Of a stretch of 64,000 nt of DNA, positions 1-3,165 are shown piece by piece. The notes under the pieces were generated by a model. That model was not told the origin of the DNA, searched no databases, and was given only the letters and a program-made list of their open reading frames with translations. Location of the stretch: assembly GCF_024502345.1 (NCBI RefSeq), contig NZ_JALDNN010000001.1, one strand, 5' to 3'. How positions within the stretch are numbered: position 1 is the first letter of the stretch; each line of letters opens with the position of its first letter. The stretch is from Escherichia coli. GTDB taxonomy: Bacteria; Pseudomonadota; Gammaproteobacteria; Enterobacterales; Enterobacteriaceae. The translations under genes and the position numbers were made by a program.

Positions 1-2110
1 AGGTTGCAAAATCAACCTGGTCGTCGATAACGGCAAAATCGTCCGGGCGGAGGCAGCGCAGGGGAAAACCAACCAGGGTACCCTGTGTCTGAAGGGTTAT
101 TATGGCTGGGATTTCATTAACGATACCCAGATCCTGACCCCGCGCCTGAAAACCCCCATGATCCGTCGCCAGCGTGGCGGCAAACTCGAACCTGTTTCCT
201 GGGATGAGGCACTGAATTACGTTGCCGAGCGCCTGAGCGCCATCAAAGAGAAGTACGGTCCGGATGCCATCCAGACGACCGGCTCCTCGCGTGGTACGGG
301 TAACGAAACCAACTATGTAATGCAAAAATTTGCGCGCGCCGTTATTGGTACCAATAACGTTGACTGCTGCGCTCGTGTCTGACACGGCCCATCGGTTGCA
401 GGTCTGCACCAATCGGTCGGTAATGGCGCAATGAGCAATGCTATTAACGAAATTGATAATACCGATTTAGTGTTCGTTTTCGGGTACAACCCGGCGGATT
501 CCCACCCAATCGTGGCGAATCACGTAATTAACGCTAAACGTAACGGGGCGAAAATTATCGTCTGCGATCCGCGCAAAATTGAAACCGCGCGCATTGCTGA
601 CATGCACATTGCACTGAAAAACGGCTCGAACATCGCGCTGTTGAATGCGATGGGCCATGTCATTATTGAAGAAAATCTGTATGACAAAGCGTTCGTCGCT
701 TCACGTACAGAAGGCTTTGAAGAGTATCGTAAAATCGTTGAAGGCTACACACCGGAGTCGGTTGAAGATATCACCGGCGTCAGCGCCAGTGAGATTCGTC
801 AGGCGGCACGGATGTATGCCCAGGCGAAAAGCGCCGCCATCCTGTGGGGCATGGGTGTAACCCAGTTCTACCAGGGCGTGGAAACCGTGCGTTCTCTGAC
901 CAGCCTCGCGATGCTGACCGGTAACCTCGGTAAGCCGTATGCGGGTGTAAACCCGGTTCGTGGTCAGAACAACGTGCAGGGTGCCTGCGATATGGGCGCG
1001 CTGCCGGATACGTATCCGGGATACCAGTACGTGAAAGATCCGGCTAACCGCGAGAAATTCGCCAAAGCCTGGGGCGTGGAAAGCCTGCCTGCTCATACCG
1101 GTTATCGCATCAGCGAGCTGCCGCACCGCGCAGCGCATGGCGAAGTGCGTGCCGCGTACATTATGGGCGAAGATCCGCTACAAACTGACGCGGAGCTGTC
1201 GGCAGTACGTAAAGCCTTTGAAGATCTGGAACTGGTCATCGTTCAGGACATCTTTATGACCAAAACCGCGTCGGCGGCGGATGTTATTTTACCGTCAACG
1301 TCGTGGGGCGAGCATGAAGGCGTGTTTACTGCGGCTGACCGTGGCTTCCAGCGTTTCTTCAAAGCAGTTGAACCGAAATGGGATCTGAAAACGGACTGGC
1401 AAATCATCAGTGAAATCGCCACCCGTATGGGTTATCCGATGCACTACAACAACACCCAGGAGATCTGGGATGAGTTGCGTCATCTGTGCCCGGATTTCTA
1501 CGGTGCGACTTACGAGAAAATGGGCGAACTGGGCTTCATTCAGTGGCCTTGCCGCGATACTTCAGATGCCGATCAGGGGACTTCTTATCTGTTTAAAGAG
1601 AAGTTTGATACCCCGAACGGTCTGGCGCAGTTCTTCACCTGCGACTGGGTAGCGCCAATCGACAAACTCACCGACGAGTACCCGATGGTACTGTCAACGG
1701 TGCGTGAAGTTGGTCACTACTCTTGCCGTTCGATGACCGGTAACTGTGCGGCACTGGCGGCGCTGGCTGATGAACCTGGCTACGCACAAATCAATACCGA
1801 AGACGCCAAACGTCTGGGTATTGAAGATGAGGCATTGGTTTGGGTGCACTCGCGTAAAGGCAAAATTATCACCCGTGCGCAGGTCAGCGATCGTCCGAAC
1901 AAAGGAGCGATTTACATGACCTACCAGTGGTGGATTGGTGCCTGTAACGAGCTGGTTACCGAAAACTTAAGCCCGATTACGAAAACGCCGGAATACAAAT
2001 ACTGCGCCGTGCGCGTCGAGCCGATCGCCGATCAGCGCGCCGCCGAGCAGTACGTGATTGACGAGTACAACAAGTTGAAAACTCGCCTGCGCGAAGCGGC
2101 ACTGGCGTAA
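1..2110 (+). CDS. fdhF: formate dehydrogenase H, selenocysteine-containing (5' end upstream of window; in-frame TGA at 380-382 read as Sec)
   Basis: ORFs 158-382 and 431-2110 share one frame and are separated only by a single TGA; translation ...NNVDCCARV-[TGA]-HGPSVAGLHQSVGNGAMSNAI... matches FdhF around the Sec codon; frame stays open to the window start. Confidence 0.95.
380..425 (+). promoter_or_regulatory. SECIS recoding hairpin immediately 3' of the fdhF UGA(Sec) codon
   Basis: Sequence tga cacggcccatcggttgcaggtctgcaccaatcggtcggtaatggc matches the fdhF selenocysteine insertion element as I recall it; position directly after the in-frame TGA. Confidence 0.85.
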
Positions 2111-2124
2111 TACAGTCCTTTCTA

Positions 2125-2151
2125 CAGCCTCCTTTCGGAGGCTGTTTTTTT
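2125..2151 (+). terminator. intrinsic terminator downstream of fdhF
   Basis: GC stem cagcctcc/ggaggctg with tttc loop followed by a T7 run, 15 nt after the fdhF stop. Confidence 0.7.
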
Positions 2152-2203
2152 ATCCATTCGAACTCTTTATACTGGTTACTCCCTACCCAATCGTATTATC
2201 AAA

Positions 2204-2893
2204 ATGAAAAAAATTATCGCATTGATGTTGTTTTTGACATTCTTTGCCCACTCCAACGACTCCGAGCCTGGCAGCCAGTATTTAAAGGCAGCAGAGGCCG
2301 GGGACCGACGCGCACAATATTTTCTTGCCGACAGCTGGTTTAGCTCCGGCGATTTGAGCAAAGCCGAATATTGGGCACAGAAAGCCGCCGACAGCGGTGA
2401 TGCTGATGCCTGCGCGCTGCTGGCGCAGATCAAAATCACCAATCCGGTCAGTCTGGACTATCCACAAGCAAAAGTTCTTGCAGAGAAAGCGGCGCAAGCG
2501 GGCAGTAAAGAAGGTGAAGTAACGCTGGCGCATATTCTGGTAAATACTCAAGCGGGTAAACCGGATTATCCAAAGGCAATTTCGCTGTTAGAAAACGCCT
2601 CGGAAGATCTGGAGAACGACTCTGCCGTCGATGCCCAAATGCTGCTTGGTTTGATTTACGCCAACGGCGTGGGCATTAAGGCCGACGATGACAAGGCAAC
2701 CTGGTATTTCAAACGCAGCTCTGCAATTTCCCGAACCGGTTATTCCGAGTACTGGGCGGGAATGATGTTCTTAAACGGTGAGGAAGGTTTTATCGAGAAG
2801 AACAAACAAAAGGCGCTGCACTGGTTGAACCTGAGCTGTATGGAAGGGTTTGATACCGGGTGTGAAGAGTTTGAAAAATTAACCAACGGTTAA
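2204..2893 (+). CDS. yjcO: Sel1-like repeat protein of unknown function
   Basis: 229-aa ORF with N-terminal signal-like segment and repeated A-x-YxLA/AxxWxxKAA motifs; position between fdhF and gltP as in K-12. Confidence 0.8.
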   Translation: MKKIIALMLFLTFFAHSNDSEPGSQYLKAAEAGDRRAQYFLADSWFSSGDLSKAEYWAQKAADSGDADACALLAQIKITNPVSLDYPQAKVLAEKAAQAGSKEGEVTLAHILVNTQAGKPDYPKAISLLENASEDLENDSAVDAQMLLGLIYANGVGIKADDDKATWYFKRSSAISRTGYSEYWAGMMFLNGEEGFIEKNKQKALHWLNLSCMEGFDTGCEEFEKLTNG

Positions 2894-2894
2894 G

Positions 2895-3165
2895 GTAGGC
2901 CTGATAAGACGCGTTAAGCGTCGCATCAGGCGTTGATGTCGGATGCGGCGTAAACGCCTTATCCGACCTACAAAATCACGCTAAATCAGGCTATTGCGCT
3001 GTCTGGCGTAGGCCTGATAAGACGCGGCAAGCGTCGCATCAGGCATTGATGTCGGATGCGGCGTAAACGCCTTATCCGACCTACAAAATCACGCTAAATC
3101 AGGCTATTGCGCTGTCTGACGTAGGCCTGATAAGACGCACCAGCGTCGCATCAGGCATCCACACA
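2895..3165. repeat. REP/BIME cluster organised as a 113-bp tandem repeat (two full units plus a partial third)
   Basis: The unit gtaggcctgataagacgcg...gcgtcgcatcaggc...gccttatccgacctac recurs starting at 2895, 3008 and 3121 with only a few substitutions. Confidence 0.85.

Follow-up and report, generated by a model that had tools for sequence, protein, structure and literature searches.

The in-frame UGA codon and SECIS element of fdhF in a strain of Escherichia coli

The fdhF gene and its surroundings

The first gene of the window is fdhF, which encodes formate dehydrogenase H, a catalytic Mo-bis-MGD selenoprotein. The window is the whole 64-kb stretch of DNA that we analysed (64,000 nucleotides of Escherichia coli contig NZ_JALDNN010000001.1, assembly GCF_024502345.1). 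fdhF occupies positions 2-2110 on the + strand (codons 14-715 and the TAA stop), and its 5' end is cut by the edge of the window. Frame 2 of this strand is open from position 2 through a TGA at 380-382 to the TAA at 2108-2110, with no further stop. When the TGA was translated as a residue, the product matched residues 14-715 of the FdhF chains in PDB entries 1aa6, 1fdi, 1fdo, 2iv2 and 7z0t with H326Y as the sole substitution, and the TGA aligned with X140 (selenocysteine) of 1aa6. Because the match starts at PDB residue 14, codons 1-13 are missing from the window, and so are the promoter and the start of the gene. The missing start (MKKVVTVCPYCAS) was supplied by a metagenome contig (L089) that shares 5 kb with the window without a single difference and also contains the codons for the N-terminal Cys8 and Cys11, likewise outside the window.

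The protein on both sides of the TGA belongs to a single family and, in part, to a single domain. The translation exceeded the cut-off of the NCBIfam equivalog TIGR01591 (1071 bits; cut-off 666.25) and contained, in order, the domains Molybdop_Fe4S4 (PF04879), Molybdopterin (PF00384) and Molydop_binding (PF01568), all above their cut-offs. The Molybdopterin domain covers residues 48-474 of the window translation and runs across the TGA. The motifs V-U-H-G-P at residues 139-143 and N-P-V-R-G at 330-334 are in register with 1aa6; they include Sec140, His141 and Arg333, the active-site triad in crystal structures of the enzyme. A preliminary description of this DNA, made from the sequence alone, had proposed that the apparent stop at 380-382 lies within one selenoprotein gene, and the in-frame TGA, the continuation of the same protein beyond it, the alignment with X140, the equivalog match and the domain that spans the codon all bear this out. 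Its count of 559 codons after the TGA needs correction. There are 575 sense codons (383-2107), and 559 is the length of the open reading frame that starts at the next in-frame ATG (Met157, positions 431-433; open reading frame 431-2110, + strand).

The fdhF allele in the window is close to those of other E. coli strains. The window is collinear with 4,236.6-4,299.3 kb of K-12 MG1655 in reverse orientation, and the gene order mdtP-fdhF-yjcO-gltP is the same in both. The coding sequence differs from that of K-12 fdhF (b4079) at 15 nucleotides, none of them in the UGA codon or the SECIS element, and only one difference is non-synonymous: H326Y, a change of CAT to TAT at 938-940 (codon 326) relative to K-12 and 1aa6, seven residues before the catalytic Arg333. 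Apart from this substitution, residues 14-715 are the same as in the K-12 and PDB proteins. The exact 559-amino-acid product with Y326 was present in 169 blocks of the public collection, indicating that H326Y is a circulating allele and not an error. Five synonymous differences and one non-synonymous difference separate the gene from the nearest E. coli allele, a ratio indicating that the protein is under purifying selection. The locus was found in 5419 of 5426 complete E. coli genomes, many of them with 99.7% DNA identity. A search of E. coli genomes with window 1-2400 (fdhF-yjcO) matched 6467 places in 5420 records, with at most four per genome and six on plasmids; some genomes have extra full or partial copies, or gave split matches.

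Several other elements were identified in the window. A hairpin followed by a T-run lies at 2124-2155 (+ strand), 14 nt after the fdhF stop; it has a 9-bp stem with six G-C pairs, a 4-nt loop and the run TTTTTTT, and by its match to the consensus it is a putative terminator. Five minus-strand naRNA4 repeats of the REP type (2898-2968, 3011-3081, 13615-13685, 50394-50464 and 55400-55470) and the small RNA sraL/ryjA (20925-21065, next to soxR) matched their Rfam families above the gathering scores; two of the repeats are in tandem between yjcO and gltP. An element of 768 bp, the size of IS1, is at 51341-52108, between the two copies of a 9-bp target duplication (ACCGAAGCC), at a site that belongs to lamB in K-12. 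lamB encodes maltoporin, the phage lambda receptor, and appears to be interrupted in this strain. A second 768-bp copy, 99% identical and in inverted orientation, is at 22879-23646 with its own 9-bp duplication (AACTGTCGC), inserted in the gene that is pdeC (c-di-GMP phosphodiesterase) in K-12. The 27.7 kb between the two copies are not inverted relative to K-12.

The hairpin at the UGA codon

The sequence around the TGA matches the Rfam model of the fdhF-type SECIS element over its entire length. Model SECIS_2 (RF01988) matched window 375-429 on the + strand at 87.1 bits (gathering score 70), covering model positions 1-55 of 55, with an E-value of 6.8e-19 for the 2.4 kb searched and 1.8e-17 for the whole window. 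This was the sole SECIS match in the 64-kb window at or above the gathering score of its family. The match comprises an outer helix (375-379 paired with 425-429), a lower stem (382-392 with 412-421) and an upper stem-loop (394-410), and the minimum free energy (MFE) fold of 375-429 is the SECIS_2 consensus structure. The model was probably trained on a set that included this very sequence, and support from Rfam is therefore partly circular. The related model SECIS_3 (RF01989) shares with SECIS_2 the start UGACAYGGNCC and a stem-loop whose apical loop contains GU. It matched 377-435 at 35.8 bits, well under its gathering score of 63 and with several non-canonical pairs, and on both score and pairs we rejected membership in that family and assign the element to SECIS_2.

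The element is identical to the one that has been characterised experimentally. The 55 nt around the TGA are the same as in K-12 MG1655, the sequence used in the published experiments, including the position of the codon, the 11-nt spacing, the GGUC loop and the bulged U. Kotini et al. described UGA140 followed by a SECIS that encodes residues 141-153 (PMC4513850), which corresponds to window 383-421. A review describes the element as a 40-nt hairpin in which U17, G23 and U24 are essential for binding of the elongation factor SelB; its upper part, 17 nt long and numbered 15-31 with the U of UGA as nt 1, is separated from the codon by 11 nt (PMC8659212). By this definition the SelB-binding apical minihelix (GGUUGCAGGUCUGCACC) occupies 394-410 (+ strand), and the 11-nt spacer that we counted between it and the UGA occupies 383-393 (+ strand), the 5' arm of the lower stem. 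Mapped onto the window, the bulged U17 is position 396, the GGUC loop is 401-404, and G23 and U24 are 402 and 403.

Folding energy did not distinguish the element from shuffled sequence. The MFE was -14.9 kcal/mol with z = -1.33 and -19.7 kcal/mol with z = -1.23, and 22 and 25 of 200 shuffles folded as well. With z near -1.3 there is no separation from the shuffles, and we did not count folding energy, which does not formally define the family, as support. Support for the SECIS element comes instead from the covariance model, the identity with the characterised element, constraint on synonymous sites and covariation. The preliminary description had placed a characteristic hairpin directly 3' of the UGA and had suggested RNA folding and alignment with the known fdhF SECIS as checks. 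The hairpin is present and its sequence is that of the known element. Folding gave the expected shape, with an energy within the range of chance, and the proposed extent of 380-425 contains the hairpin but is slightly too small (375-429 in Rfam, 383-421 for the published SECIS).

Conservation of the codon and the hairpin among relatives

The TGA is conserved in nearly all of the closest relatives. A scan of species-representative genomes yielded 80 Enterobacterales fdhF loci with 81-100% protein identity, and the homologous codon was TGA in 79 of them. The one exception, in a metagenome-assembled genome (MAG) of an uncultured Enterobacteriaceae (CALYPF010000061.1), had TGT (Cys) with the upper SECIS sequence intact, which suggests either a very recent switch from selenocysteine to cysteine or a base-call error in the MAG. 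Two copies of fdhF, about 86-95% identical to the query, were found in each of Raoultella ornithinolytica, Klebsiella oxytoca, K. michiganensis and one gut Enterobacteriaceae genome, and both members of each pair had the TGA and an intact SECIS. Among database proteins, singleton entries (P0001-P0016) for full-length (715-amino-acid) FdhF had a substitution at position 140 (W, G, R, L or C) or a deletion of 10 residues. Each sense codon at this position was one base from TGA and was found once, and these entries are probably sequencing errors or rare mutants.

Synonymous variation collapses just 3' of the TGA. We compared 79 gap-free coding sequences with a median nucleotide identity to the window of 84% and a minimum of 75%. 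Codons 144-149 (392-409) were identical in 79 of 79, synonymous sites included. The mean synonymous codon entropy across fdhF was 0.985 bit, and codons 144-149 had the lowest value of 685 six-codon windows. The longest invariant run in the gene was the 20 nt at 392-411, in marked contrast to the next longest of 8 nt. Of the ten degenerate codon columns in the gene that were strictly invariant, seven were in codons 141-153 (Fisher p = 1.7e-11), and a run of six invariant codons arose in 0 of 100,000 permutations. These results argue strongly for purifying selection at the level of the RNA, beyond coding constraint, just 3' of the TGA. We also considered constraint extending beyond the 17-nt helix and rejected it. 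The invariant run exceeds the helix only at 392-393 and 411, which are first and second codon positions fixed by the protein sequence, so that no extra signal is needed.

Covariation became apparent only when more divergent sequences were included. Among the 80 closest species loci it was not significant (100 of 500 shuffles reached the score); most of the variable pairs showed only C/U switches opposite G, and the sole double change was in the cysteine variant. To gain divergence we scanned metagenome DNA with a pattern anchored on the upstream peptide C-C-A-R-x-U-H-G-P, an anchor that leaves the hairpin unbiased. The scan gave 50 distinct 55-mers, from which 12 chance matches in non-fdhF contexts were dropped, leaving 38 in verified fdhF context down to 65% protein identity. 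The combined alignment, from which one sequence with an 8-nt deletion (L165) was omitted, contained 52 distinct orthologous sequences. The covariation score was 0.124, compared with 0.083 +/- 0.004 for shuffles, and was reached by 0 of 500. Standard pairs filled 92.7% of cells, compared with 22-47% when the partners were slid. Pair 20-36 (G15-C31) was G-C in 44 sequences, U-A in six and unpaired in two; pair 23-34 (U18-A29) was U-A in 45, A-U in seven and broken in none. Column 22 (U17) and the GGUC loop did not vary in the 52 sequences. The compensatory double changes were confined to a single clade (about 66% identity) and may go back to only one or two events; the covariation lends modest support to pairing in the upper stem.

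The alignment also bears on the position of the bulge and on the two outer helical segments. In the Rfam register, columns 22 and 34 are paired and the U at column 23 is bulged. We rejected this register: pair 22-34 was broken in seven sequences and the score was lower. Pair 23-34 was never broken, which places the bulge at column 22, window position 396, in agreement with the published U17. Two pairs of the lower stem, 8-47 and 17-39, were broken in 14 and 34 of the 52 sequences, in keeping with the published conclusion that the lower stem does no more than modulate efficiency (PMC8659212). The outer helix (375-379 with 425-429), which includes bases 5' of the UGA, was paired in 98% of cells in the 52 sequences.

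Some of the divergent sequences differ in and around the SelB-binding part. In the fdhF clades of L107, L181, L109 and L202 (about 74-75% identity) and L124 (67%), other codons follow the loop (CAG CGT, for example), and in the MFE upper stem either the bulged U of E. coli is paired or a G is bulged in its place; on these predicted folds, recognition by SelB may differ in these lineages. We also considered a speculative proposal, very unlikely in our judgement, that the outer helix might have a separate function, for example in hiding the UGA or in setting the pace of ribosomes ahead of the SECIS, and that, separately, fdhF clades of 67-75% identity might have a SelB with altered recognition. 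The omitted sequence L165 (metagenome contig JADHEE010001960.1) retains the TGA and has lost 8 nt of the SECIS apex (GGTCTGCA) between TGCA repeats. With the loss of these bases the SelB-binding loop is gone and the reading frame is shifted, and this fdhF is probably a pseudogene or an assembly error.

An explanation without a SECIS is exceedingly unlikely. In such an explanation, 392-411 is conserved through constraint on the protein or on codon usage, or on account of some other nucleic-acid signal, and the UGA is read by near-cognate suppression, with tryptophan or cysteine inserted. The non-significant MFE z-scores, the frequently broken lower-stem pairs and the rare entries in which residue 140 is W, C, R, G or L would be in keeping with it. 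However, protein constraint cannot fix six consecutive synonymous sites, the upper stem varies in a compensatory fashion while the loop and the bulged U never change, and the sense-codon variants are all one-base changes seen once each. In addition, published assays with the K-12 element, identical to this one, showed no read-through once the SECIS was deleted (PMC4513850).

Decoding of UGA140 and annotation of fdhF

Two explanations that deny a single continuous gene fare no better than near-cognate suppression. One is that there are two genes, encoding a 139-amino-acid N-terminal protein and a 559-amino-acid protein that starts at ATG 431. Automatic gene callers produce exactly this split, in eight of the eight contigs inspected and in most database entries among the matches listed. 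Nevertheless, the junction lies within one Pfam Molybdopterin domain, the crystallised protein is one chain of 715 residues, the 48 nt from the TGA to ATG 431 encode an in-frame peptide (HGPSVAGLHQSVGNGA) that is conserved in all orthologues, and RefSeq has one CDS; we give this explanation almost no credence. The other, that fdhF is a pseudogene here with a nonsense mutation at codon 140, has next to no chance of being right: a plain reading does stop after 126 in-window codons, and the IS1-type insertions in two other genes indicate that gene loss does happen in this strain, but the same TGA is in 79 of the 80 species loci, in K-12 and in the crystallised enzyme (as Sec140), the 575 downstream codons are open with five synonymous changes to one non-synonymous change from the nearest allele, and the constraint on synonymous sites directly after the TGA is extreme.

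Taking together the identity of the gene, the position of the codon, an RNA element identical to the characterised one, the RNA-level selection and the compensatory changes in the upper stem, we consider that window 2-2110 almost certainly encodes one polypeptide, FdhF, with the UGA at 380-382 read as Sec140 by way of a SelB-bound SECIS. Nothing that we found contradicts recoding. In the proposed mechanism, the mRNA directly 3' of the UGA would fold into the fdhF SECIS hairpin, and SelB carrying GTP and Sec-tRNA(Sec) would bind the apical minihelix at 394-410 with the winged-helix domains at its C-terminus. Contact with the SECIS has been reported for WH3/WH4, the last two such motifs in domain IV of SelB (bioRxiv 10.1101/2025.02.04.636165). 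Binding would depend on the bulged U396 and on G402 and U403 of the GGUC loop. Since the minihelix is 11 nt from the codon, tethered SelB could reach the ribosomal A site and would deliver Sec-tRNA(Sec) there in place of release factor 2. The UGA would thus be decoded as Sec140, a ligand of the molybdenum in the active site, and ribosomes that do not recode would terminate, leaving a 139-residue fragment. Recoding efficiency at fdhF UGA140 has been measured at 30-40% (PMC4513850). We infer SelB binding, insertion of selenocysteine and recoding of about 30-40% in this strain from the published work on the identical K-12 sequence.

The machinery for selenocysteine insertion is encoded elsewhere in the genome of E. 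coli. We found no sel homologues or tRNA genes in the 64-kb window. On the K-12 map, selAB is at 3.758-3.761 Mb, selC at 3.836 Mb and selD at 1.847 Mb. Among complete E. coli genomes, selAB was found in 5425 of 5426, selC in 5424 of 5426 and selD in 5425 of 5426, and because these genes are near-universal in the species they are very likely present in this strain. Cysteine-type formate dehydrogenase alpha subunits, which have the same fold and belong to the same family, need no recoding machinery; the fdhF in the window, in contrast, has a TGA with an intact SECIS.

The way in which fdhF is annotated depends on the pipeline. The preliminary description had warned that an automated pipeline would call two open reading frames or a pseudogene. 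This holds for generic gene callers, which gave separate 139- and 559-amino-acid products in all eight of the public contigs inspected, and does not hold for RefSeq/PGAP, which, like the K-12 record, has a single 2148-nt CDS, with no pseudogene flag. Most of the protein clusters among the matches listed are 559-amino-acid fragments, one of them with 11,377 members; these matches are saturated by relatives of at least 87% identity and are informative only on how the gene is called.

UGA140 of fdhF and its SECIS are the founding example of selenocysteine recoding in bacteria. The preliminary description had called the case established and not novel, and we agree: this is a textbook element, identical to that of K-12 and already known, and our analysis makes no addition to the biology. 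Its consequences are for annotation. Generic gene callers split fdhF almost always, which has inflated protein databases with fragments of 139 and 559 amino acids. The gene should be annotated as one selenoprotein CDS of 715 codons with a translation exception at 380-382, and not as a pseudogene or as two open reading frames. The local collapse of synonymous variation right after an in-frame TGA is a sign of such elements that is independent of annotation.
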